Counted from the stretch's first letter, positions 1 to 14,980 are shown. The stretch is DNA of 14,980 nt from an uncultured Thermoplasmata archaeon (GCA_964399335.1 CAYNQI010000016.1:1-14980), one strand, 5' to 3'. A program made the numbers and translations. Notes: generated from the sequence alone by a model not told the origin.

Positions 1-1061
1 TGAAAACCAAAGAGAAAGTTGGTATTAAAAGTTACGCTGGATACGTGCCAAGATACAGGATCAAACCAAAAGAGATCGGTGAAGTATGGGGTAAAGATGG
101 AGAAACTATGGGTAAGGGACTCAGGATTAACAGTAAATCGGTTCCTTCACCTGATGAAGATGTGATAACGATAGCAACTCAAGCTGCTAGATGGGCTATG
201 GAAAGAGCAAGAATCAAAGGTATCGATATAGGTGCTATCTATGTGGGCTCAGAATCACATCCATATGCTGTTAAACCAACTGCAACGATAGTTGGAGCAG
301 CTATAGGTGCTACACCTTTGATGACAGCTGCAGATTATGAATTTGCATGTAAAGCCGGTACCGCTGGATTCCAAACTTGCATGGGCTTGGTATCATCAGG
401 GATGATAAAAAACGGAATGGCTATCGGAGCTGACACGTCACAAGGTGCCCCTGGAGATGCTTTAGAATACTCGGCAGCTGCTGGTGGTGCTGCTTATATT
501 ATAGGCACAGAGGACATCCTAGCAGAGATAAAACACACATGTTCCTTTACTACAGATACACCAGATTTCTGGAGAAGAGAGGGACAAAAATACCCCTCGC
601 ACGGAGGAAGATTCACTGGCAAACCTGCCTATTTTAAACATATAACTGAGTGTACAAACAATTTGATGGAAGAATCTGAAACGGTACCAGACGATTATGA
701 TTATGCAGTGTTCCATCAACCTAACGGAAAATTCCCTGTTAAAGTAGCTAAAAAATTAGGATTTTCAAAAGAACAGATCGATCCTGGTTTATTAGTTACA
801 AGGATTGGAAATACTTATTCAGGTGCTGTTCCCTTGGGTTTGGCAGCAACGTTAGATCAAACAGAACCGGGTGATAGAATTTTGGTGACTGCTTATGGAT
901 CTGGTGCTGGTTGTGACAGTTTTGACATTGAAGTCACGGAGAATATAAAAAAGATAAAAAATGATGAAGTACCGACTATCCAAGAAGTAATCTCCGATGA
1001 AGAGTTCATACCGTATTCTATCTATGCTAAATTCCGAAGGAAAATAGAAGGAGGTCATTAA
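1..1061 (+). CDS. hmgS: Archaeal hydroxymethylglutaryl-CoA synthase (5' end clipped by 1 nt at the window edge)
   Basis: Catalytic motifs are intact: [11 protein letters not shown] (Glu, nt 252-254), FACKAG (Cys, nt 348-350) and FHQPN (His, nt 714-716). It also has the archaeal-type [15 protein letters not shown] motif. The frame is open upstream of the GTG at 45 (xTG AAA ACC AAA GAG AAA GTT GGT ATT..., i.e. [M][20 protein letters not shown]), which matches the usual HMGS N-terminus. Confidence 0.95.
1050..1055 (+). promoter_or_regulatory. Shine-Dalgarno site (GGAGGT) for the thiolase-like gene, embedded in the HMGS 3' end
   Basis: GGAGGT lies 7 nt before the ATG at 1063. The HMGS stop is at 1059-1061. 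Confidence 0.75.
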
Positions 1062-1062
1062 A

Positions 1063-2229
1063 ATGAGAGACGTAGCGATAATAGGTATTGGAGAAACACA
1101 AATAGGTGAACTTTGGGACAAGTCACTTAGAGAATTGGGTATAGAAGCAGGTCTAAAGGCAATACGTGACGCTGGTGTTTCTGGAGAAGAAGTTGATATG
1201 CTCTATGTTGGAAATATGTCAGCAGGCAAGTTGATCAATCAAGAACATGTTGCCCCCATGATCGCTGATTATGCAGGTTTAGATGATGTTCCTGCTGTCA
1301 GAATAGAATCCGGTGGTGCCTCAGGAGGGATGGCTTTAGCTGAGGGATATATTTCAGTAGCATCCGGCCTAGATGATATCGTTGTCGTTGGTGGTGCAGA
1401 AAAGATGACCGATGTGAATGATGAGGAAGCAAAAAAGATATTGTCTTCAACTGCAGATCAAGAATGGGAAACAGTGTGTGGGGCTACATTTGATTCATTA
1501 CACGCAATGATGGCCCGTTATCACATGAATAAGTATGGAACCACTAAAGAGCAGCTTGCAGAAGTGATAGTTAAGAACCATTCGAACGCATCTAAAAATC
1601 CAAACGCACAATATCCTAGAGAGATACCTAAGAATTTCGTCATGAATGCTCCCATGGTTTCAGACCCCCTGGGAATGTTTGATTGTGCTCCACTTTCTGA
1701 TGGTGGAGCTGCTGTGGTCTTATGTCCAGCAGAATATGTGGATAGTTATAAAGGAGAACCAGTGAAGATATTAGGAGCCGGTCACGGAGCAGATCATATA
1801 GCTCTTCATGATCGAAGAGAGATAGGGAGTATGAAAGCCACTAGGATAGCTGCTGAGAAGGCCTTCGAACACTCAAAAATATCCCCGAAAGATATAGATC
1901 TTGCAGAAGTTCATGACAACTATTCTATAAGTGAAATCGTAGCAATCGAAGATCTGGGATTCTTCAAAAAAGGAGGAGGGGGACAAGCAACAGAAGATGG
2001 TAGGACAGCTTTGAATTCAGAGGTCTCTATAAACACTTCTGGTGGATTAAAAGCTAAAGGACAACCAGTAGGAGCTGTAGGTATCAACCAAGCTATCGAA
2101 GCTACTATTCAACTTCGAGGTGATGCTGGTGATAGGCAAGTAGAAGATGCAAGATATGGATTAACCCATAATGTAGGTGGGACCGGTGCTAGTGCTGTTG
2201 TTCATATATTTGAGAGGTGGTCTGAATGA
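1063..2229 (+). CDS. Archaeal acetyl-CoA acetyltransferase (thiolase)-family protein with a degenerate active site
   Basis: Thiolase-fold motifs are present: MRDVAIIG, YVGNMSAG, DIVVVGGAEKM, DCAPLSDGGAAVVL, INTSGGLKAKG and THNVGGTG. It sits between HMGS and DUF35. The catalytic positions read ESGGASGG (normally ExxCASG), EVHDNY (normally HDCF/HDAF) and KGQPVG (normally GHP). Confidence 0.9.
   Translation: MRDVAIIGIGETQIGELWDKSLRELGIEAGLKAIRDAGVSGEEVDMLYVGNMSAGKLINQEHVAPMIADYAGLDDVPAVRIESGGASGGMALAEGYISVASGLDDIVVVGGAEKMTDVNDEEAKKILSSTADQEWETVCGATFDSLHAMMARYHMNKYGTTKEQLAEVIVKNHSNASKNPNAQYPREIPKNFVMNAPMVSDPLGMFDCAPLSDGGAAVVLCPAEYVDSYKGEPVKILGAGHGADHIALHDRREIGSMKATRIAAEKAFEHSKISPKDIDLAEVHDNYSISEIVAIEDLGFFKKGGGGQATEDGRTALNSEVSINTSGGLKAKGQPVGAVGINQAIEATIQLRGDAGDRQVEDARYGLTHNVGGTGASAVVHIFERWSE
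2214..2219 (+). promoter_or_regulatory. Shine-Dalgarno site (GAGGTG) for DUF35
   Basis: GAGGTG lies 6 nt before the ATG at 2226. The ATGA start/stop overlap with the thiolase gene suggests translational coupling. Confidence 0.65.
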
Positions 2230-2639
2230 CGACCCCTAGATTCTGGAGAGAGATAGAACAGAGATATCGGGGTATCGGAGTGCAGTGTGAAATTTGTGAT
2301 AGGGTGTATTTCCCACCAAGGGAGATATGTCCTCACTGTCGTAGAGAAAGCTTCGGAAAGATGAATGAACGTGAACTGAGTGGAAAGGGAAAGGTTTTGA
2401 CATACACCGAAGTACATGATCCACATCCGGATTTCAAGATGTTAACTCCATATATAATGGCTATAATTGAAATGGAGGAAGATGTTAGAGTTACGGGACA
2501 AATAGTAGACATAGACTACGAGAAAGTAGAAACTGGTATGGAAGTAAAAGCTACGATGAGAAGGCTTGGTGAAGAAAGCCCGGAAGGTATAATCTACTAC
2601 GGATATAAGTTCACTCCCATAAAAGAGATAAAAGAGTGA
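2226..2639 (+). CDS. DUF35 family Zn-ribbon/OB-fold protein (scaffold subunit of archaeal thiolase/HMGS complexes)
   Basis: MTTPRFWRE N-terminus, a CEIC...YFPPREICPHC zinc ribbon, and an OB-fold segment (GKGKVLTYT...PYIMAIIEMEEDVRVTGQIVD...YGYKF). It is the third gene of the HMGS-thiolase-DUF35 trio. Confidence 0.93.
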   Translation: MTTPRFWREIEQRYRGIGVQCEICDRVYFPPREICPHCRRESFGKMNERELSGKGKVLTYTEVHDPHPDFKMLTPYIMAIIEMEEDVRVTGQIVDIDYEKVETGMEVKATMRRLGEESPEGIIYYGYKFTPIKEIKE

Positions 2640-5049: not shown

Positions 5050-6390
5050 ATGAGTGAGAGAGTAATCGTTATAGGGAGTGGACCAGGCGGATACAAGAGT
5101 GCAGTCCATGCAGCTAAGAAAGGTTTAGATGTTAAATTGATTGAAAAAAGTGATGATATAGGTGGCGTATGTACTAATCATGGATGTATCCCATCAAAAG
5201 CCCTTTTATCTATTGCAGAGACTATTGATGATATACAAAATTCCAGGAGAAAAGGTATATCTTCGTCTATCGATGATATCGATCTTAATAAAGCCCAGAT
5301 GGTAAAAAACAGGGCAGTAAAAACATCTCAAAAGGGTATCATTAACCAGCTTGAGGAAAATGATATAGAGACAATAAAAGGCGAAGCAAAAATCAAGGAT
5401 AAAAACACAGTTGACGTCGGTGGTGAAGTACATGAAGCAGACTATATCATTATTGCTACTGGTTCTGAACCGATAATACTGCCAGGTTTGGATGTAGATG
5501 AAGAGAACATCTTGACTAGCAGAGGAGTGTTAAAATTAGATGAGATTCCAGAAGATATACTTATCATCGGTGGAGGGTATATCGGAATAGAGCTTGCTTT
5601 CGTACTATCATCTTTTGGAAGTAAAGTGACTATAGTTGAATTGATGGACAATATTTTGCCTAATATGGACCAAGACTTAGCTGCAGAAATTGAAAGTGTT
5701 CTCAAAAGAAAGAGGATTAAGGTCATAACGGGTTCTAAAGTTTCAGAAGTCGAAGGTGATTCACCTTTTGAAGTAAAGATAGAAGGTAAAGAGAACAAGA
5801 CTATCAAAGCAGAAAAAATACTGTGTGCTGTAGGTAGAAAACCAACACCCCCTGAGACTGAATTAGATATTATAGGTCCTCATAACGAAATAATCACAAA
5901 TGATTTTATGGAAACCCCTGTAAAGAACGTATATGCAGTTGGTGATGTTACAGGTAAAATGATGTTAGCTCACGCAGCTTATAAACATGCAGAAATCGCT
6001 GTGAAAAATATAGTCGGGGAAGATACTCCTAAATTTTCACATTACAGTGTTCCTGCTGGGGTATACACTCATCCAGAAGCTGCCAGTATTGGATCAACTG
6101 AGGAAGAAGCTAGAGAAAAATACGAGGATATAAACATCGGTAAATACCCTATTTCAGCAAGCGGTAGGGGATACTCTACTGGTAACAGAACTGGTGTTGC
6201 AAAAGTCATAGCTCACGATGATAAAATTGTAGGTATGCATTTAGTATGCCCGGCTGCAACGGATATTATCATGGAAGGAACAATTGCTATGGAAGGTAAT
6301 ATAGGAGTTGATAAATTATCTGATATTATCCACCCCCATCCCACCTATTCAGAAGCTCTTAAAAAAGCAGCGGAAAAAGCACTACGATAA
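5050..6390 (+). CDS. lpdA: Dihydrolipoamide dehydrogenase (E3 / glycine cleavage L protein)
   Basis: FAD motif GSGPGG, redox disulfide GGVCTNHGCIPSK, NAD motif GGGYIGIE, VYAVGD, and the C-terminal His-Glu pair HPHPTYSE. Confidence 0.93.
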   Translation: MSERVIVIGSGPGGYKSAVHAAKKGLDVKLIEKSDDIGGVCTNHGCIPSKALLSIAETIDDIQNSRRKGISSSIDDIDLNKAQMVKNRAVKTSQKGIINQLEENDIETIKGEAKIKDKNTVDVGGEVHEADYIIIATGSEPIILPGLDVDEENILTSRGVLKLDEIPEDILIIGGGYIGIELAFVLSSFGSKVTIVELMDNILPNMDQDLAAEIESVLKRKRIKVITGSKVSEVEGDSPFEVKIEGKENKTIKAEKILCAVGRKPTPPETELDIIGPHNEIITNDFMETPVKNVYAVGDVTGKMMLAHAAYKHAEIAVKNIVGEDTPKFSHYSVPAGVYTHPEAASIGSTEEEAREKYEDINIGKYPISASGRGYSTGNRTGVAKVIAHDDKIVGMHLVCPAATDIIMEGTIAMEGNIGVDKLSDIIHPHPTYSEALKKAAEKALR

Positions 6391-6447: not shown

Positions 6448-9400
6448 TTAAGCCTTAATTTTACTAAGTTTTATAAGTGCCTGAGACTTATTGAGCATGG
6501 CATCTCTATAATCTCCTTGGATCTCCAAAGCTTTGTCATAGCATTCTAGTGCTTCAGAATAATTTCCACATCTAAAATTAACATTTCCTAAATTATTCCA
6601 TGCAATAGCATACTCTTCGTCAATATTTATCGCATTAATTAAGCATTTTTTAGCTTTTTCCTGTGCACCAACCCTACTATAAGCTGTTCCTAAATTATTC
6701 CAAATAGCCTCGTTATCCCCTTCAAGATCAAGTGCTTTTTTAAACTTTCTTATAGAATCCTCATATTCCCCCATGCTACAACTGTTTATTCCTTTGATAT
6801 AGTAAGGGATTGCTTTCTCTTCAGATACGGGACAGGTTTTACTAATATTTTCATAGTAATTTCCAGAATCTTGATAATTAGAGAATCTTTTTGAAAGTGA
6901 AACTGATTTGGTTTCATAACTCCCAATAGTTTCCTTATACCACGTGGCAGTACCGCTCATGACCATCACTGATCCTAATCCCAATGGCAATATAATCGTA
7001 TATTCAAGATGGGAGATCTGAACAGAATAAAATATCAATGTCAATCCTGCAACGAACAATATACAGATACCTGAAAACCAAAGCATATAATAATGAAATT
7101 TTTTGGGTAAACTATAATCTAAAATCCAAAAAATCCCCAATGCAGTAGCCGTCATCCCAGCACTAGCTAACAATGGAATATTTAAATTGAGGATATACCT
7201 ACTCGTCGGAATAAATGATGAGATTATTATACCTATCAAATATCCCACAAACCCTATGGAAGAATATGAAATAATTTCATCTTTAAATGCATATACAGTT
7301 AATATGCCCAATCCAAAGAATAGACCTATCAAGATCAATCCAAGTTCACCAAAGTAATTAAAATCAGATGTCCTGTAGGTCGTAAAATATATACCTCCAA
7401 AAGCTAAAAGAGATAAACTAGAAACCGGTACTTCGTAATCTTTTGCTTTATACAAAATATTTTTTAAACTATGTTGAATATGAGATTCTACAAAATCAGG
7501 TTCTGGTCTAGATTTTTTTAAAGATGGTTTAGATTTAGAAACAACCGAGGGTTCTGATTTAACTGTTTGAGAAACTCTAGTAGCTTTTGATAAAATCGTT
7601 TTCTCACTAATCGTTTCTTTTTCTCCAACAACTTCGTCTAAAGACTGATCGCAAACACTACAAAATTCGCTATCTTTACTTATATAAGATTTACAGGTTG
7701 GACATCTTATCCAATCATCATCTTTTTTGAAATCTTCTACAGACTTTTCCTCATCTTCAATCTCTGTCTTTAATCCATCAGCATCATATTCCAATCCCTT
7801 TTCTTTAAGATCACTTGTAGATTCTGTTTGATCCGGCTTATCTTCAATTTCTGCTTTTTCTTCGTCATATCGACTTTTCAAAATAGACTCGATTTCCTCA
7901 TTAAGTTTAATATCAAATTCGTCCTCATCCTCTTCTAAATCTATTTCATCGGAAGTTGGTGCAAAATCACCTAAATCATCTTCATCTATTTCATCCCCAG
8001 TGATTTGCTCTTCATCATCCATTAATTCACTTAAATCAAAATCGTCTTCTTCAAGCTCTTCATAATCTTCTTCAAATTCATCAATATCTTGGTCTTCAAG
8101 CTCTTCATCCAACGTTTCTTCTGTATTCAAAGTTTCAGAGGGTTCTTCTTCTACTTCTGAATGATCGTAACTTTCTGCAGGTTCAATATCACTTTCCCCT
8201 AAATCTGATTGACATATAGAACAGGTCTCAGCACTAGCACTTACCATGGCGCCACAACTTGTACATAAATATAATTCCACTTCGTCTTCTTCATATTCCT
8301 TTGAACCATCATCAGTTTGGCCAAAGAATTTTTTTATGACCTCTTCTTGGTCAGTTTCTGCGACGGAAACCTCCTCTTTTTCGATGTCTTTTTTTGCAAA
8401 CTCCATATCGCTTCCGCATATCGAACATCTTTCCTTTTGATCTTTTACAAAAGCTCCACAAGCATCACAGATAGCCAAATTTCCATCTGTATAATCAATA
8501 TGAGATCCATCAACTGTTTCTATTTCTGGGGTCTCTGAAGATAAACTGCCGCAAACAGGACATCTTTCATTTTCATTTCTTAAAAAAGCTCCACACACTG
8601 TACAAACGTCTACCTTACTCTCATCTCTTGAGGTTATATCTTCCCTCTCAGATCCAATTTCCTCTTCTGTCTTTTCAGAAAGACCAAGTGCTTTTTTAAG
8701 CGTATTAACGTCATCATCCATAGAATGGTCTTCAACATCATATGGTTCTAACTCGGTATCGATAGCTTCTTTTGTAAACTCATGATGACAAATAGGACAT
8801 TCTTCTACAGAGTTATTAGATATCCATCCACAATTCCCACAAATTTTTGCATTATCTCCTACATGGAGTCCCTCTGCTGTAGTACTAGTTGATTCCGGTT
8901 CTTTATAAAATTCATCTTCAGATTTTTCTTCTACTTCAAAAGCTTCTACTTCCTCTTTCGAAACATGGGAATCTTCAATATCCTCGTCTTCATACAAAAA
9001 TTCTTCATCAATCTCACTTAACAATTCAGGTTCTATTTCTTGAAGTTCCTCTGTTTCTTTTTCTTCGGATACCTCTTGTTCTAATCCCTCATTTAATTCT
9101 TCAGCTATACTTTCAAATGATTTTTCGGGCTCTATTACTTCTTCCTGCCCTACGTCTAATTCATCTATTACTTCTAGATCTATTTCTTCTTGGACTTCTT
9201 GAACACCCTCTTCGTCTGGTATTTCTGGCTCTATTTCCTCCTCATATTCCTCAGGTATATCTTCTTCTTCAATATCCTCGGAGAAAGTAAATCCACAATT
9301 CGGGCAGTCCGTTGATTTTACACTAACAAAAGCTCCACAATTAGTACATAAGAAAAGTCCATCCTCCTCTTCTTTTTCTTCAGTCTTTTCCTGGATAACT

Positions 9401-9999
9401 TCTTCTGTGATTTCTTGTTCTACTTCCTCTTCTACTTCCTCTTCTATCTCCCCCATACTTGTTCCACAATATTTACAAACCTCAGAATCTGCACTTACAA
9501 AAGAACCGCAGTTAGTGCAAAGATAAAGTGAACCATCTTCTTCTTGAGTTTCATCTAAATCTTCGTCTGCATCATCATTTCCCTCCTCATCGATTTCATC
9601 GTCTATATCCTCCATAATTGCTCCACAATTCGAACAGCGTTTAGATTCTTCCCCGACGAAAGCACCACATTCATCACAAAGATAAAGCCCTCCTTTTTCT
9701 TTAGTTTCCTCAATAGTTTTTACAATATCACTAGCTATAGATTCACCTATGCCTTCTATAGAAGTTATACTCTCAACATCTATATCATCTAAATCTTTAA
9801 TATCGGAATATCCAGCTTTAACAATATTCTTAGCTCTAGAAGAACCAACTCCAGATATTTGTTTTAAAGCATTTAAAACATTGAATTCATCATTATCAAG
9901 GGACTGTCCTGGTAATTCTTGATCACATTTTTTACATTTAACAGAATCCAGAGAATTTACAGTGCCACACTCTTCACATTTTATTTTATTGCTACTCAA
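6448..9999 (-). CDS. Multi-zinc-ribbon / HhH / polytopic membrane / TPR protein of unknown function (1183 aa)
   Basis: Nine CxxC-x10-CxxC motifs, a tandem HhH motif (ISGVGSSRA...IEGIGESIA), long D/E-rich linkers, about 6 hydrophobic helices (aa ~855-1021), and three TPRs plus a cap (e.g. AIAWNNLGNVNFRCGNYSEALECYDKALEI). TTG start with a strong RBS. Confidence 0.9.
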   Translation of the reverse strand: MSSNKIKCEECGTVNSLDSVKCKKCDQELPGQSLDNDEFNVLNALKQISGVGSSRAKNIVKAGYSDIKDLDDIDVESITSIEGIGESIASDIVKTIEETKEKGGLYLCDECGAFVGEESKRCSNCGAIMEDIDDEIDEEGNDDADEDLDETQEEDGSLYLCTNCGSFVSADSEVCKYCGTSMGEIEEEVEEEVEQEITEEVIQEKTEEKEEEDGLFLCTNCGAFVSVKSTDCPNCGFTFSEDIEEEDIPEEYEEEIEPEIPDEEGVQEVQEEIDLEVIDELDVGQEEVIEPEKSFESIAEELNEGLEQEVSEEKETEELQEIEPELLSEIDEEFLYEDEDIEDSHVSKEEVEAFEVEEKSEDEFYKEPESTSTTAEGLHVGDNAKICGNCGWISNNSVEECPICHHEFTKEAIDTELEPYDVEDHSMDDDVNTLKKALGLSEKTEEEIGSEREDITSRDESKVDVCTVCGAFLRNENERCPVCGSLSSETPEIETVDGSHIDYTDGNLAICDACGAFVKDQKERCSICGSDMEFAKKDIEKEEVSVAETDQEEVIKKFFGQTDDGSKEYEEDEVELYLCTSCGAMVSASAETCSICQSDLGESDIEPAESYDHSEVEEEPSETLNTEETLDEELEDQDIDEFEEDYEELEEDDFDLSELMDDEEQITGDEIDEDDLGDFAPTSDEIDLEEDEDEFDIKLNEEIESILKSRYDEEKAEIEDKPDQTESTSDLKEKGLEYDADGLKTEIEDEEKSVEDFKKDDDWIRCPTCKSYISKDSEFCSVCDQSLDEVVGEKETISEKTILSKATRVSQTVKSEPSVVSKSKPSLKKSRPEPDFVESHIQHSLKNILYKAKDYEVPVSSLSLLAFGGIYFTTYRTSDFNYFGELGLILIGLFFGLGILTVYAFKDEIISYSSIGFVGYLIGIIISSFIPTSRYILNLNIPLLASAGMTATALGIFWILDYSLPKKFHYYMLWFSGICILFVAGLTLIFYSVQISHLEYTIILPLGLGSVMVMSGTATWYKETIGSYETKSVSLSKRFSNYQDSGNYYENISKTCPVSEEKAIPYYIKGINSCSMGEYEDSIRKFKKALDLEGDNEAIWNNLGTAYSRVGAQEKAKKCLINAINIDEEYAIAWNNLGNVNFRCGNYSEALECYDKALEIQGDYRDAMLNKSQALIKLSKIKA

Positions 10000-10006
10000 A
10001 TTATGG

Positions 10007-10013
10007 CACCTCC
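10007..10013 (-). promoter_or_regulatory. Shine-Dalgarno GGAGGTG for the TTG-initiated zinc-ribbon gene
   Basis: The minus strand reads GGGGAGGTG-CCATAAT-TTG. Confidence 0.75.
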
Positions 10014-10031
10014 CCTTTATTTTTATTTGGC

Positions 10032-10048
10032 ATATATATACTTTTCTC
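10032..10048 (-). promoter_or_regulatory. Putative BRE + TATA promoter for the zinc-ribbon gene
   Basis: The minus strand reads GAGAAAAG-TATATATAT in the 71-nt gap between the two large genes. Confidence 0.55.
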
Positions 10049-10070
10049 AGCGGTGGGAATGATTATAACG

Positions 10071-13000
10071 TTAACCAACTGTATCACCTCTGTATATTTC
10101 TGTTAGCCTGTCCTCATTATGGTATACGTGCTGAGAATCTGTATCATTATTTTGCATTGATTTGTTTCCTTCTTTTTTACGTCTATATATAAACATCCCG
10201 ACAAACAATCCTATTGTTGATAATACTGGAATGAATATGTCAGAAAATTCTGAGATAGTTGTAACATCAGTGACAGTATCAGATACTGATGAATCCCTAG
10301 TAGAAGTAGCTGTAAGTGTACTTACATCCTCGACTCCAGATTCTGCATTCCCAGGTATCTCAACACCAAGTGTAACATCTATAGATTCTCCCATCTTTAA
10401 TTTCCCTGTATCTGGGTTTCCACTTCCTGTAGAATCCCATTCAGAATCGACATAATCCCAGTTCCCATCTCCACCATAATCAATAGCTATTACATTGCCA
10501 TCTCCATCATAAAGAGTTAAATTAAAGCCTTGAGAGGAAGAAACACTCAACTCAAAACGATCGTTACCCCTACCCAGATTAGTTATGGTATGATCATACA
10601 ACACCTCAGTACCAGCTTCTCCTTCACCTTCTCGATCCGGATCAACCTCCACATCAGCAGGTATTTGGAATAATCCATCGTCTTCAGATACAGCTTCTTC
10701 GTAGTCAGTAGCTGTCACCTCTGCCTGGTACTCACCAACATTTGCTTCTTCATCTAAATCATATTCACCTTCATAGGTCAAAGTACCTTCTGAAGAAGAT
10801 AATGAATCAAGTGGGTACATATCAATATTTTCCCCTATTAGCTCCCCATCAGGATTATATATATCCAAGGTTGCCTCCATAATATTTTGTGTTCCATACG
10901 GATCGGAAACATCAGCTCTAACTGTAACTGTATCACCTGCACTGAAGGTATCAGTCTGTTCACCATCTTTGTAAGTCCGGATATTCTCTAGATCAATATA
11001 TGTATCTGTGTTAAGTTCAATACGGGAATCGAATTCAGATGAATCATAATACAAAGTCAAGTCATTAGTAGAGACACTTACCTCCAACTCAAGACGATTA
11101 CCCTCCGAAAGTGTCCAATCAGTATTAATTGGGAATTCGTACCACCCTTCATCTTCTAAAGAACCTATTGAATGTTGACCTATCCTTTCACCTGATTCAA
11201 GCAGGCTAACCGTTACATCAGGACGTCTCCACCCATCACGATGAGGTTCGATGTATAGATAAACGTTTGAGGTACCTAGAAGTGTAAAATCACCAGCGAG
11301 TTCAGGTGATTGGTACCAAATTTGATCTCCCTGGAATCTATTTTGAACTGTATTATCACCTATTTGATTGTCTAATGTATCATCCTCATGTAGATATAGT
11401 GTTCTCATCACCGTCGGAGGGGGAACGCGAGTTGTTACTGCAGCATCATCAATTATATCATCTTCAGTTGAAGATGTTGCATATAATGCCGTTTCATCTG
11501 TTTCCCCTTCTATATCTGGTGGAACAAATTTTACGAGTGTGAAATCTATTGAATCTAACGCTTCTAAAGATACATCGGGATAGCCACTATCAGTACTATC
11601 CCATGACTGATCAATCCAATCCCAGTTACCTTTCCCCTCTTCATCAAGAGCAACGAGTTCTCCTCCAAAATATAACCCTGTTTCCCATCGGCGGCTTGAT
11701 TCACCTACGCTTAGCTCATAGATATCGTCCATATTCCCTATATTTTCAACAGTAATACCATACTCTACACTAGAATCAGCATCTACTGTTTTGTAATTAT
11801 CAGGGTAAACGAAAACGTCGTATTCTTTGGGTAATAAGAAATAACCAGACCCAATATCAGATATACCCTGTATATCTAATGCAGTGATATCGATCTCATA
11901 TTTACCCCTAGTCACATCCTCAGGGATCTGGAAAGAAGTATAATATGTGGCACTATAAGGAGGATGATTATCATCATCTTCCAAAAAATCCATTTCAACG
12001 TTCTCTAAAAATATTTCACCATCAGGATCCAACACATCCATAGTGATATCAAAAATCACGTCAGCACTCACCGGATGAGAAACGTCAGTCCTTACTTCCA
12101 CAATTTCTCCATAGTCAAAATCACTCCTTTGATTGCCATCTGAATCGTAAGTCCTTACGTCATCAACTTCGACAGTAGTATCTGTTGGTATGTTGATCCT
12201 AGAATCGTATTCATCATTATTATAATAAACTGACAGATGTAATCTACCATCATCCCCAAAAATTTCAGTGTTCATCGATAATGTATCCCCTGCAGATAGA
12301 GTATCTACCATAGGATCAATAGACACCATATACCACCCTTCATCAGAAACTCTGCTGATCTCACTATATCCAACAGTATTCCCTCCACTATCTAAAGATA
12401 TATTGACCCCAGGAGCATGACGGCCTGTAGGATCTGGCTCTAGGTAAAGATGAACGGTCATGTCTGATGTGATGGAAAGATCACCTGCAAATGGTTCGGA
12501 TTCCCATGAGTGTGAATCTGTTCCTCTATTATCTAATAAAACACTGAGTTCATTATTTCCTTCTTCAAGTGATAGAGAGTCTTCTTCTCTAAGATAGAAT
12601 CTTAGATTTTCACTTGATTCAGTAAGGAGTTGATCTTCACCACCTACTATCTCCTCGGAATCTACAGAATTCGTTTCAGGATTATAACTGCTCAGATCAT
12701 AACTATTAGAACCATCTTCGATATCGTTGAAGTGATTCATACGCTGATTGATACCCCGTATACTCTCTTCATCTATTGGAGATGTAACATCCATAGCATT
12801 AGTCCAGTCAGAGCTGACGAAGGACACTCTTGCTTCAGATTCAAGTTCTAAATCGATAGCTGTTTCCAAACTAGTTCGATTGATTGCAGTGTGTATTTCA
12901 TCTATCATGGTCCATTCCCAGTCGTTACCCGATCCTTCATATTCAGTCAGATATGCCGAAGTAACTTCCATATTTCTACCTGTGATGTTAACCATATAAT

Positions 13001-14980
13001 CTGCTCTGATGTCTAACCATGGTGCACTGTAACCCTCAGTTGGGTCAGTTTCGATAAATATCCTCATGAAATCATGACCCGTCCTAACTGGAATTGTTAC
13101 TGGACCGATATACCGACTTACTTCTCTACCCCAATATCTTTCGGGAATTTTGGGGTCTTCGGGGATAGTAGTGTTCAACCATTTATCGGGACCATAGGGC
13201 CAATCAGCAACTCCATCACCATCTACATCTGGAAGAAGTTCACCATCAACCTCCACGAACATCTCGGAATCTGGAGTTCCATCGTTTGTAAAATCATTTG
13301 GATATGGGTCGTATATATCTGGTATTCCATCACCATCGGAATCTTTCAATTCAGGAGGCCTAGACCGATGATATGGGATGTCCTCACCACCCATCATGTT
13401 ACCTTCAACTCCCACCTTAAACAAAGTTTCATCGTGTGAATACATGCTGTGTCTTCTGATATCTATATTTGGATTCCAGGTATCATGGGGAGTCAAATCG
13501 TCTAATGGATCGGTTCTATAAGCATATTCATCCCAGAATGCAAATGCTCCATCAACACGAGGTTCTTCAGGGATCTCATTTATATGTTTATTTTCCATTA
13601 ATGGAGGGAAAATGGTAGATAATCCGTCTCTACAAAGGATATCGGCCAATCTTAGTCCAATAGGTTCTCTAGAAGTTGCTTCATCATTAATATACGCTGC
13701 TACGATGAACTCTCGAGGTTTAGGAGTTAATTCTAGATCCAATTCGATTGTAGCATTATTCTCAAAGTTTTCATATACCGCAATTGGTTCTCCGATAAAT
13801 TCGCCATTAGTGTAATTTTGCATATCATAAATGAATACACTATCGATGTATTCTGAAGAATAGTCGTTATATTCTAAAACAATTGATTCCATTATTGCAT
13901 CTTCAGATATAGAAATCGATTCAAAAGAAAATAAAGGTTCTAGTTCTCCAGATTCAACTACTTTCGGTCCAAATAATTCTGTAGAGGTCGCAATAGAATC
14001 TAGACCCTCCCATACTTTTCCAGCAGTGATGTCCCACCCACGGGGACTTTTTGAATGGATTACCATTGAAGGTTGTTTATCTTCTGCAAGACTACCTATC
14101 CAAAATCTTGCTTCCAACTCACTTCCTTCCGATATAGCTTGACCACCTCCAGAATTCCGGAATCCATTCCAATCATCAGATCCACGACTTTCATTGAATC
14201 TTTGAAGCGTAGTTCCTTCGATATTTTCACCCCATCCATATACTTCAAAAAGGTAATCTGCCTTTATATCTCCGATTTCATACCCATAATCTTCCACATC
14301 GATGAAGAAACGCACTGAATGCACACCCTCATCGATTTCAAACAATGTACCATTAGTTCGTAAATATAGATACATATATCCATCAGATTCCTTTAATTTG
14401 TATTCTCTAATATCTAAACTTTTGTCTTCTAATTCATCATTCTCTGGATCGTAATAAGCACGAACAGCGTGCCAATCATCAAAGTCACCATCTATTTCAA
14501 CATCTATTTCAACAGGTACGTAAAGAAGATTTAACATTATTGGTATAGTTAAAAGAAAAATCATTATGACCACAGTCCCTAATCCTTTTTTAAACCAAGA
14601 TGGAGGCATACCACGATGAGGTAAGCTACCTCCTTCACCAAGATCCATTCTATGTGATGCAAGGGTGTCTTTAATGAAACCCTCATCATCATTTGGTAAA
14701 CCTCCTCCAACTAGACCATTTACCAGGCCATCTTCAGCAGGTAAACTGTTTTTCTCTTCGTCTTTTATAAAATCTGAATATACATCTTCTTCACCGGTCA
14801 TCCCAACAATTCTATCAACTAATCCATCTTCATCCGGTATAGATTGGCTCTCTAAAACAGTATCAATAGTGCCATCAGTTGCAGTTTCTTTAAACACAAC
14901 GTCCCCATTGTTTTTGTCTAATCCATTTACTAATCCGTTTATTTTTCCATTAACTTCACCGTTGATTTTTCCGTTAGTCA
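10071..14980 (-). CDS. Large acidic cell-surface glycoprotein-like protein, 5' partial (>1635 aa)
   Basis: The frame stays open from the GTG at 14897 to the window edge (...TNGKINGEVNGKINGLVNGLDKNNGDVVFKE). It has a TM helix near 14520-14586, beta-sandwich-type extracellular repeats, DxDGDG loops, about nine extracellular NxS/T sequons, and a C-terminal SEF-TM-RRKK segment. Confidence 0.88.
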   Translation of the reverse strand, partial: TNGKINGEVNGKINGLVNGLDKNNGDVVFKETATDGTIDTVLESQSIPDEDGLVDRIVGMTGEEDVYSDFIKDEEKNSLPAEDGLVNGLVGGGLPNDDEGFIKDTLASHRMDLGEGGSLPHRGMPPSWFKKGLGTVVIMIFLLTIPIMLNLLYVPVEIDVEIDGDFDDWHAVRAYYDPENDELEDKSLDIREYKLKESDGYMYLYLRTNGTLFEIDEGVHSVRFFIDVEDYGYEIGDIKADYLFEVYGWGENIEGTTLQRFNESRGSDDWNGFRNSGGGQAISEGSELEARFWIGSLAEDKQPSMVIHSKSPRGWDITAGKVWEGLDSIATSTELFGPKVVESGELEPLFSFESISISEDAIMESIVLEYNDYSSEYIDSVFIYDMQNYTNGEFIGEPIAVYENFENNATIELDLELTPKPREFIVAAYINDEATSREPIGLRLADILCRDGLSTIFPPLMENKHINEIPEEPRVDGAFAFWDEYAYRTDPLDDLTPHDTWNPNIDIRRHSMYSHDETLFKVGVEGNMMGGEDIPYHRSRPPELKDSDGDGIPDIYDPYPNDFTNDGTPDSEMFVEVDGELLPDVDGDGVADWPYGPDKWLNTTIPEDPKIPERYWGREVSRYIGPVTIPVRTGHDFMRIFIETDPTEGYSAPWLDIRADYMVNITGRNMEVTSAYLTEYEGSGNDWEWTMIDEIHTAINRTSLETAIDLELESEARVSFVSSDWTNAMDVTSPIDEESIRGINQRMNHFNDIEDGSNSYDLSSYNPETNSVDSEEIVGGEDQLLTESSENLRFYLREEDSLSLEEGNNELSVLLDNRGTDSHSWESEPFAGDLSITSDMTVHLYLEPDPTGRHAPGVNISLDSGGNTVGYSEISRVSDEGWYMVSIDPMVDTLSAGDTLSMNTEIFGDDGRLHLSVYYNNDEYDSRINIPTDTTVEVDDVRTYDSDGNQRSDFDYGEIVEVRTDVSHPVSADVIFDITMDVLDPDGEIFLENVEMDFLEDDDNHPPYSATYYTSFQIPEDVTRGKYEIDITALDIQGISDIGSGYFLLPKEYDVFVYPDNYKTVDADSSVEYGITVENIGNMDDIYELSVGESSRRWETGLYFGGELVALDEEGKGNWDWIDQSWDSTDSGYPDVSLEALDSIDFTLVKFVPPDIEGETDETALYATSSTEDDIIDDAAVTTRVPPPTVMRTLYLHEDDTLDNQIGDNTVQNRFQGDQIWYQSPELAGDFTLLGTSNVYLYIEPHRDGWRRPDVTVSLLESGERIGQHSIGSLEDEGWYEFPINTDWTLSEGNRLELEVSVSTNDLTLYYDSSEFDSRIELNTDTYIDLENIRTYKDGEQTDTFSAGDTVTVRADVSDPYGTQNIMEATLDIYNPDGELIGENIDMYPLDSLSSSEGTLTYEGEYDLDEEANVGEYQAEVTATDYEEAVSEDDGLFQIPADVEVDPDREGEGEAGTEVLYDHTITNLGRGNDRFELSVSSSQGFNLTLYDGDGNVIAIDYGGDGNWDYVDSEWDSTGSGNPDTGKLKMGESIDVTLGVEIPGNAESGVEDVSTLTATSTRDSSVSDTVTDVTTISEFSDIFIPVLSTIGLFVGMFIYRRKKEGNKSMQNNDTDSQHVYHNEDRLTEIYRGDTVG
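10173..10253 (-). other. PEF-CTERM-like sorting/anchor segment (ISEFSDIFIPVLSTIGLFVGMFIYRRKK)
   Basis: Tripartite layout of motif, hydrophobic helix and basic cluster, as in archaeosortase C substrates, but with SEF in place of PEF. Confidence 0.65.
10254..12611 (-). repeat. Tandem duplication of a ~390-400 aa three-domain module (copy 1 ~12611-11415, copy 2 ~11414-10254)
   Basis: Paired motifs: FAGDLSITSDMTVHLYLEP / LAGDFTLLGTSNVYLYIEP; DEGWY / DEGWY; YDSRINIPTD / FDSRIELNTD; VRTY / IRTY; DPDGE / NPDGE; GKYEI / GEYQA; GNWDWIDQSWDSTDSGYPD / GNWDYVDSEWDSTGSGNPD. Confidence 0.85.
13203..13343 (-). other. Ca2+-binding-type loops (TSP3-like DSDGDGIPDIYDPYPND...DGTPD and DVDGDGVAD)
   Basis: Two DxDGDG motifs with the DGIPD..DP.P pattern characteristic of thrombospondin type-3-like repeats. 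Confidence 0.7.
14922..14978 (-). repeat. Tetrapeptide xxNG repeat (TNG-KING-EVNG-KING-LVNG) with 12/24-nt DNA periodicity
   Basis: On the plus strand, ccgtttatttttccatta (14935-14952) and ccgttgatttttccgtta (14959-14976) match at 16 of 18 nt, 24 nt apart. The repeat continues off the window. Confidence 0.75.

Follow-up and report, generated by a model that had tools for sequence, protein, structure and literature searches.

A membrane protein with nine zinc ribbons from Thermoplasmata as a candidate docking scaffold for a KaiC-linked giant surface protein

The window analysed here, a 14,980-nt stretch of DNA from an uncultured Thermoplasmata archaeon (GCA_964399335.1 CAYNQI010000016.1:1-14980), carries on its minus strand a gene for a 1183-amino-acid (aa) membrane protein, the nine-ribbon protein, in which nine zinc ribbons of the form CxxC-x10-CxxC (R1 to R9) lie on a long acidic arm. 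Our results show that the protein represents a real, conserved, rare and uncharacterised family, which we provisionally group with the known membrane-tethered zinc-ribbon adaptors, its frozen nine-fold array and its placement in a gene cassette being new. Because of the architecture of the protein, the non-equivalence of its ribbons, the cassette and a set of domain fusions, we argue for docking by the ribbons and for a coupling role, and the reading that we prefer, in which we place about even confidence, is that the nine ribbons may be multivalent protein-docking beads, carried by the cytoplasmic arm of a scaffold that sits in the membrane and serves a KaiC-linked giant surface protein. The nine-fold, non-equivalent array and the KaiC/giant cassette are the interesting part of this system, the 10-residue inner spacer (x10) being ordinary for the ribbon class.

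Architecture and conservation of the nine-ribbon protein

A regular-expression scan returned the same nine coordinate pairs that the original prediction had listed, all of them within one open reading frame (ORF), 6448-9999(-). The nine motifs take up 36 of the 42 Cys and all 18 CxxC pairs of the protein, against a chance expectation of 0.0016 motifs on average and one at most in 20,000 shuffles of the same protein. The repeat consensus proposed for them holds in part, since L(Y/F)LC is found in R2, R3, R4 and R8 and CG(A/S)(F/M)(V/L) in R2, R3, R4, R6, R7 and R8, whereas R1, R5 and R9 deviate. The exact x10 spacing stressed in the original prediction is not peculiar to the array but standard for Zn_ribbon_3, Zn_Ribbon_1 and DZR; it occurs in 109 of the 109 ribbons of the wider family described below and is the modal CxxC...CxxC spacing in the genome (38 of about 145 pairs). 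Other proteins of the genome carry two or three x10 ribbons, including the cytoplasmic C-tail of another giant surface protein, and a hidden Markov model built from 144 family ribbons matched 10 ORFs in the genome, with more than three copies only in the nine-ribbon ORF.

Searched as a whole against Pfam, the protein scores 68 bits for Zn_ribbon_3 (cut-off 27), 68.1 for DZR (27.3) and 44.3 for Zn_Ribbon_1 (25), and by sequence the nine ribbons are members of this family (PF13248, PF12773 and PF13240, respectively), with which they share the CxxC-x10-CxxC knuckle pair and a position in the cytoplasmic part of a membrane protein. In Pfam, Zn_ribbon_3 and DZR are single or double ribbons with no function attached, whereas nine positional ribbons are combined here with a double helix-hairpin-helix domain, (HhH)2, six transmembrane (TM) helices and tetratricopeptide repeats (TPR). 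Taken singly, R3 alone exceeds the Zn_ribbon_3 cut-off (30.1 bits against 27). R1 stays below the single-ribbon cut-off, with E-values (E) of 4.8e-4 for Zn_ribbon_3 and 3e-3 for Zn_ribbon_RanBP, and R5 is the sole ribbon to approach the RUBY_RBDX model (24.5 bits, cut-off 26.5). Short strands flank each CxxC knuckle in the AlphaFold2 model. A sequence search of the PDB with aa 1-240 gave a meaningful match to the HhH region only, while the ribbon pair R3-R4 weakly matched an archaeal RNA-polymerase subunit M zinc-ribbon protein (E 1.4e-3).

A word-indexed search of 5.8 billion proteins retrieved only 16 full-length relatives (1080-1330 aa), which are named, where a name is given, 'Thermoplasmatota archaeon' or 'Candidatus Saliniplasma sp.' (order Ca. 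Halarchaeoplasmatales). All 16 of these orthologues, at 35-63% identity, have nine ribbons and the x10 spacer, with 36 of 36 Cys invariant. Each ribbon has its own conserved consensus in the ortholog alignment and, when orthologues of 35-38% overall identity are compared, identity outside the Cys is 0.41 to the ribbon of the same number and 0.24 to other ribbons; together these observations imply nine binding surfaces that are not interchangeable. The closest pair of ribbons in DNA is R6/R7, with 80% identity over 50 nt, and a recent tandem duplication of the ribbons was rejected because DNA similarity is kept in that pair only. Net charge of the ribbons ranges from 0 to -3, that is, neutral to mildly acidic, which is atypical of nucleic-acid binders.

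Beyond these orthologues, a profile of the 6-TM domain searched against 1.84 billion representative proteins gave 31 clusters, 25 of them at E <= 1e-10, whose full-length members have 4, 5, 6, 7, 8, 9 or 11 ribbons, always with the x10 spacer, and an HhH domain in some lineages but not in others. In six-frame searches, most genomes of the family to which the gene belongs (f1) had it, as did several sister families of the class, and the TM profile matched three of 401 genomes in a sample even across the phylum, so the family is confined to few Thermoplasmata families among the genomes searched. Distribution and copy-number variation, the points on which the original prediction proposed to look further, can thus be described as a rare family with 4-11 ribbons between families and a number fixed at nine in its own. 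The earlier remark that this arrangement has no characterised function is also borne out, as the architecture is covered by no Pfam, NCBIfam or PDB entry. No NCBIfam model reached its cut-off on the nine-ribbon protein, the ESM Atlas returned low-score matches only (0.80), to small multi-DZR hypothetical proteins of Thermoplasmatota, and the only public names are 'double zinc ribbon domain-containing protein' and 'tetratricopeptide repeat protein'. Full-length copies of the gene's DNA are also present in metagenome assemblies of soda lakes and salt lakes from at least three studies, so it is not an assembly artefact; in addition, the position of the TTG start is shared with the orthologues and an identical 1183-aa protein is already on record.

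The linkers between the ribbons had been described as rich in Asp and Glu (D+E), probably disordered and of very unequal length, and they do range from 27 to 169 aa, most with a predicted local distance difference test (pLDDT) score below 50 in AlphaFold2. The N-terminal arm as a whole, about 840 aa long, is 32% D+E with a net charge of -205, and since the 95th percentile of D+E in the genome is 21.8% (median 16.7%), its acidity is far above ordinary halophile bias. Among orthologues, the R1-R2 (79-85 aa, including HhH), R5-R6, R6-R7 and R7-R8 spacings are near-constant and the linkers R4-R5 (87-171 aa) and R8-R9 (127-280 aa) are hypervariable in length. The near-constant R5-R8 stretch contains conserved motifs: R5 is followed by a KKALGLS-type helix, R6 by SETPxL(D/E) and R7 by a basic/acidic stretch, and R8 is preceded by a KKFFG-type helix, apparently the KKALG-type motif in a second copy; the KKALGLS-type motif is seen again in class-level relatives. 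In the full-length AlphaFold2 model, made from a 16-row alignment and with a mean pLDDT of 54, R1-HhH-R2 (aa 1-130) is continuous in confidence (pLDDT 70-86), the other ribbons lie at about 60-70, and short helices are predicted at residues 427-437, 551-558 and 692-719.

The original prediction was concerned with the ribbons and left three other parts unmentioned: the 6-TM anchor, the C-terminal TPR domain and the (HhH)2 domain that separates R1 from R2. The (HhH)2 domain, matched by HHH_5 at aa 44-97 with 40.4 bits (Pfam cut-off 27), has GVG and GIG hairpins that are invariant in orthologues and is modelled with pLDDT 83-86. Its sequence matches in the PDB are the N-extension of haloarchaeal eL32, the Zn+HhH part of LigA, Topo V and the N-domain of RadA, its weak NCBIfam matches are RadA, LigA, UvrC and RuvA, and by family it is a domain of the DNA-binding type. 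In the AlphaFold2 model of the last 334 residues (pLDDT 83.5), six TM helices lead into a 3-TPR domain that has a capping helix. The TPR domain (aa 1058-1180) matches TPR_11, TPR_1 and TPR_2 of Pfam at E 1e-16 to 1e-17, and its fold matches the 3-TPR peptide-binding domains of Sgt2, Hop/Sti1, PP5, CHIP and OM64 (VIA-align Z 20-21, root-mean-square deviation 1.4-2.0 A over about 120 residues), with Foldseek adding consensus TPR designs and the TPR domain of OGT. The matches listed by both of these fold searches, which used a model that also held the 6-TM domain, were to TPR structures.

The cytoplasmic placement claimed for the ribbons is well supported. The protein has no signal peptide and six predicted TM helices, and the mean Lys plus Arg count in the 16 orthologues is 9.1 for the predicted inner side, made up of both flanks and of loops 2-3 and 4-5, compared with 1.4 for the other three loops. 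This positive-inside bias and the lack of a signal peptide strongly indicate that the N-terminal arm and the C-terminal TPR domain both face the cytoplasm.

Association with a giant surface protein and a KaiC-like ATPase

Directly upstream of the nine-ribbon gene, the window contains a gene, cut at its 5' end, for a giant acidic protein that has a TM helix at the N-terminus, a TM anchor at the C-terminus and, between them, an extracellular part of about 1400 residues with beta-sandwich domains (Pfam). In 11 genomes from 7 genera the nine-ribbon gene is directly preceded, on its own strand, by a homologue of this giant, and both genes are present in 10 of the 14 other f1 genomes searched with both proteins. 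The giant is absent from three of these genomes (G010, G011 and G013) and so is the full-length ribbon gene, G011 having a 3-ribbon fragment without a TM domain, which leaves one 65%-complete genome as the sole exception to co-occurrence among the 14; as the f1 genomes are kin, these counts are non-independent observations. In three genera (G006, G007 and G009) the order of the cassette can be read: it starts with the gene for a winged helix-turn-helix (wHTH) protein (197-221 aa), continues with that for a KaiC-like ATPase of 229 aa (PF06745, E about 1e-55), and ends with the giant and the nine-ribbon gene. The KaiC and wHTH genes are out of view in the window, where the contig stops inside the giant's NG repeats. 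Contigs, that of the window included, tend to break within these repeats.

The repeats are part of the cytoplasmic N-tails of the giants, in which long (K/R)xNG tandem repeats run up to a pair of SLPAEDGL(I/V)NG-type motifs directly ahead of the TM helix. It is conceivable that the basic (K/R)xNG repeats are a counter-ion or ligand for the acidic ribbon arm. In two genera (G006 and G007) the giant opens with a degenerate KaiC-like domain in its N-terminal 230 aa (PF06745, E 1.2e-3, below cut-off), and there it directly follows the bona fide 229-aa KaiC ATPase and wHTH genes.

A different arrangement is seen in other Thermoplasmata families, in which ORFs of 1700-2340 aa (L027-L029) contain HHH_5, 6-8 x10 ribbons, NG repeats and a single TM helix and then continue into a homologue of the ectodomain of the giant in the window, and TPR-like helices are present in two of these three fused giants. 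In other words, homologues of the neighbouring giant have the HhH, x10 ribbons and TPR known from the nine-ribbon protein fused to their own cytoplasmic tail. The fused giants resemble the present system in (HhH)2, x10 array, TPR, homologous ectodomain, NG repeats and KaiC and wHTH partners, but they have these modules in the giant's own tail, whereas here the modules are on a separate 6-TM protein and the giant has instead a degenerate KaiC-like domain. A DG(H/F)WYK-type motif, absent in the nine-ribbon family, stands at a fixed distance before each ribbon of the fused giants, a sign that these ribbons may be of another subtype or have an additional strand. A framework for KaiC-linked giants is the proposal of KaiC proteins as hubs, reportedly made by Makarova, Galperin and Koonin in 2017 (cited in PMC6393860). 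Taken together, the four-gene cassette, with its KaiC ATPase, regulator and giant, and the fusions in sister lineages provide unusually strong genomic clues to the partners of the nine-ribbon protein.

Possible roles of the ribbon array

To our knowledge, few unexplained modules of prokaryotic membrane proteins are as common as DZR-type ribbons, and we know of three membrane-tethered ribbons only that have a known partner, those of ZitP, GltJ and, recently, CdpC. The nine-ribbon family is an extreme and clean case of such a design, with a fixed number of structurally independent, non-equivalent ribbons on disordered spacers. If its partners were found, it would become testable what this class of ribbon recognises, how the wall-less Thermoplasmata link their surface giants to the cytoplasm, and whether KaiC-like ATPases act as archaeal signalling hubs.

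According to the docking reading, the compact six-helix anchor would hold both the C-terminal 3-TPR domain and the N-terminal arm of about 840 aa at the membrane, and the (HhH)2 domain, flanked by R1 and R2, would lie at the distal end of the arm, where it could contact DNA. The anchor would park the scaffold next to the TM helices of the giant, and binding through the TPR domain, the ribbons or both would be to the KaiC or pseudo-KaiC domain, to the regulator, or to short motifs in the cytoplasmic tail of the giant. Through avidity, the arm might then collect several copies of one partner or different partners, and the net effect would be a coupling of cell-surface events to the cytoplasmic ATPase/regulator module. 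The beads-on-a-string tether put forward in the original prediction agrees with this picture, as the small folded ribbons, the invariant Cys, the ribbon-specific surfaces, the variable acidic linkers and the membrane anchor all fit it.

Precedents exist for a membrane-tethered ribbon with a linker acting as an adaptor. The zinc ribbon (ZnR) of GltJ binds MglB and its own linker and has a fold that resembles the PopZ-binding ZnR of ZitP (PMC11135422), and a third case is the binding of FtsZ1 by the C-terminal ribbon of CdpC (bioRxiv 10.64898/2026.07.16.738847). GltJ of Myxococcus and ZitP of Caulobacter share with the nine-ribbon protein an N-terminal cytoplasmic ribbon on a membrane protein and a flexible linker, and in them the ribbon is a protein-binding switch or adaptor in a trans-envelope machine (PMC11135422). 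Their ZnR, however, is a single bacterial ribbon with a 19-residue inner spacer (C5, C8, C28, C31), joined in GltJ by a GYF domain, and its Cys pattern differs from that of the nine-ribbon protein.

Several points weigh against the docking reading, in which every binding step is something that we infer. One genome (G032) has a stand-alone gene with five ribbons, six TM helices and TPR as well as a fused giant, and since both forms occur there, the 6-TM family is an old paralogous line and not the product of a simple split of the giant, so that its core function may be independent of the giants. No conserved neighbours were found for the class-level stand-alone ribbon/6-TM/TPR genes outside f1. 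Synteny of giant and ribbon genes within one family may be partly inherited gene order, and the dihydrolipoyl dehydrogenase (E3) gene on the other side of the nine-ribbon gene is equally conserved as a neighbour. The giant's cytoplasmic C-tail was also considered as a ligand of the TPR domain and rejected, as these tails are unconserved beyond YRRKK.

A more elaborate version of the docking reading, for which we would claim perhaps half as much confidence, has the nine-ribbon protein as the cytoplasmic hub of an undescribed membrane-spanning machine. The giant would sense or adhere outside the cell, its basic NG-repeat/pseudo-KaiC tail and free KaiC would assemble on the acidic arm, each ribbon would dock a different client, and the HhH tip would hold or release the wHTH protein, DNA or both. 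Such a receptor pathway, based on KaiC and scaffolded by a zinc-ribbon 'barcode', would have no counterpart in bacteria or eukaryotes.

Arrays of RanBP2/NZF fingers (Nup153, Nup358 and ZRANB2) likewise consist of tandem C-x2-C-x10-C-x2-C copies on disordered linkers and bind multivalently. The spacing is shared with the nine-ribbon protein, and Asn at the fourth spacer position is found in R1 only. Membership of that family was rejected, since W-x-C is absent (the Trp of R9 is at -3) and Zn_ribbon_RanBP (PF00641) scores 17.2 bits on R1 and 14.6 on R8 with a cut-off of 27, and the resemblance is one of pattern only.

The three other explanations that we considered are all less probable, and the strongest of them, though in our view unlikely, is that the protein is an anchor for the cytoskeleton. 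Each ribbon would bind a subunit or an interface of a tubulin-family filament (FtsZ or CetZ) and the array would tether or bundle protofilaments at the membrane, making the protein a high-valency integral-membrane analogue of Haloferax CdpC. In Haloferax volcanii, CdpC (HVO_0399, DUF7093) has two ribbons separated by a 243-aa disordered linker, with one end on the membrane and a C4 ribbon that binds FtsZ1 at about 0.1 uM, and multi-zinc-ribbon proteins of unknown function, reported in all classes of Thermoplasmatota, are named as its remote relatives (bioRxiv 10.64898/2026.07.16.738847). The likeness lies in ribbons on a long acidic disordered linker, bound to the membrane at one end, and in the use of a ribbon as a docking surface; a multivalent array is suited to polymer binding, six tubulin-family (FtsZ/CetZ-type) genes (L048-L053) are present in the genome of the window itself (G000, 1.57 Mb, 80% complete), and the E3 gene is a conserved neighbour in 10 genomes, the E3 protein of Haloferax being at midcell according to the same preprint (bioRxiv 10.64898/2026.07.16.738847). 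On the other hand, CdpC has two ribbons, an amphipathic helix in its C3H ribbon as an anchor and neither HhH nor TPR, whereas the nine-ribbon protein has nine C4 ribbons, six TM helices and an HhH domain after its C4 R1. The protein is not assigned to CdpC, as the defining series of N-terminal C3H ribbon, amphipathic helix, one linker and C4 ribbon is not found. DUF7093 is not among the best 25 of 37 families matched by the whole protein nor in the complete lists for R1, R3 and R5-R9 (E <= 1). The remote homologues named in the preprint are without an evident unstructured linker, unlike the nine-ribbon protein (bioRxiv 10.64898/2026.07.16.738847). No ftsZ or cetZ gene neighbours the nine-ribbon gene, and anchoring of filaments leaves the link to the giant/KaiC cassette and the fusions unexplained.

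Tandem C4 ribbons at the C-termini of topoisomerase IA bind DNA or RNA, and a tether for the nucleoid or for nucleic acids, which we rate slightly lower than the cytoskeletal anchor, would have (HhH)2 binding duplex DNA without sequence preference and the ribbons binding DNA or RNA, so that chromosome or plasmid would be pinned to the membrane near the giant. The above-cut-off HHH_5 match, whose nearest relatives are the DNA-binding HhH of RadA, LigA, Topo V, UvrC and RuvA, points in this direction, as do the R1-then-HhH order, which repeats the Zn-finger-then-HhH order of NAD-dependent ligase, and the HhH heads that are also found on the fused giants. The ribbons, however, lack net positive charge and the arm is far more acidic than the rest of the proteome, and several lineages of the family without HhH retain 6-11 ribbons, which means that the array must have a core function other than contact with DNA. 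The remaining explanation, a metal or redox device, appears very improbable to us. Here the 36 Cys would store or buffer zinc, form Fe(Cys)4 centres of the rubredoxin-like kind, or make up a thiol redox sensor that signals the level of zinc or of oxidants to the membrane through its state of folding. The 36 predicted metal-ligand Cys in one cytoplasmic arm are in keeping with it, but the positional conservation outside the Cys and the fixed copy number suggest specific surfaces instead of bulk metal capacity, and the same type of ribbon is common on many unrelated proteins of the genome. As for the Zn/Fe or redox array that the original prediction offered beside the tether, positive support was lacking and two hints were seen, the nearness of R5 to the threshold of the rubredoxin-like model and the conserved neighbouring flavoprotein disulfide oxidoreductase (E3), an enzyme that passes the equivalog cut-off for an ordinary E3. 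A device of this kind would also leave HhH, TPR and the link to giant and KaiC unexplained.

Coordinates and neighbouring genes

The features of the nine-ribbon gene and its surroundings are given in Table 1. In the gap between the giant and the nine-ribbon gene, GGAGGTG can be read 7 nt 5' of the TTG start, with a TATATATA stretch further upstream.

Table 1. Positions in the window of the nine-ribbon gene, the parts of its product and the adjacent genes (TM, transmembrane; SD, Shine-Dalgarno).
Feature	Coordinates	Strand	Description
Nine-ribbon gene	6448..9999	-	1183-aa ORF with TTG start; R1, (HhH)2 and R2-R9 on acidic linkers, six TM helices, 3-TPR
Ribbon R1, aa 8-25	9925..9978	-	pattern C-x2-C-x3-N-x6-C-x2-C, the most RanBP2-like of the nine
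(HhH)2 domain, aa 44-97	9709..9870	-	two G-h-G hairpins (GVG, GIG); Pfam HHH_5
Ribbon R2, aa 108-125	9625..9678	-	motif scan, ortholog alignment, Pfam
Ribbon R3, aa 161-178	9466..9519	-	motif scan, alignment; Zn_ribbon_3 alone 30.1 bits
Ribbon R4, aa 218-235	9295..9348	-	motif scan, alignment, Pfam
Ribbon R5, aa 387-404	8788..8841	-	CGNCG(W/Y), rubredoxin-like flavour
Short conserved helix 3' of R5, aa 427-437	8689..8721	-	KKALGLS-type motif; alignment block and predicted helix
Ribbon R6, aa 466-483	8551..8604	-	followed by conserved SETPxL(D/E) motif
Ribbon R7, aa 511-528	8416..8469	-	motif scan, alignment, Pfam
Short conserved helix before R8, aa 551-558	8326..8349	-	KKFFG-type; alignment and AlphaFold2
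Ribbon R8, aa 579-596	8212..8265	-	motif scan, alignment, Pfam
Conserved amphipathic helix in R8-R9 linker, aa 692-719	7843..7926	-	LNEEIESIL-type; pLDDT 55-75
Ribbon R9, aa 766-783	7651..7704	-	Trp (W763) invariant at -3 from first Cys
Six-helix TM anchor, aa 852-1022	6934..7446	-	AlphaFold2 model; outer loops very short
Cytoplasmic 3-TPR domain and capping helix, aa 1058-1180	6460..6828	-	Pfam TPR_11, TPR_1, TPR_2
71-bp gap from the giant's stop codon to the TTG start	10000..10070	-	AT-rich TATA-like stretch and SD-like GGAGGTG, of putative function
Upstream giant acidic surface protein, two anchors	10071..14978	-	5' end lost at contig end
Dihydrolipoyl dehydrogenase (E3) gene, convergent to nine-ribbon gene	5050-6390	+	

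The product of the E3 gene scores 462.8 bits for TIGR01350, with an equivalog cut-off of 408.8. Its adjacency to the nine-ribbon gene is kept in 10 genomes and the genes beyond it vary. The window has no E1 or E2 gene. At the opposite end from the giant, positions 3-2639 (+) hold HMG-CoA-synthase-like, thiolase and OB/zinc-ribbon (ChsH2-type) genes in a row, a trio that matches the archaeal thiolase/HMG-CoA synthase complex of the mevalonate pathway, and a nitroreductase and an AMP-forming acyl-CoA synthetase come next. Elsewhere, an ORF at the start of another contig (G000:C14:1-543, plus strand) has three near-identical tandem x10 ribbons on poly-Glu linkers, with TPR-rich ORFs after it, and may be a fragment of another ribbon-array protein.

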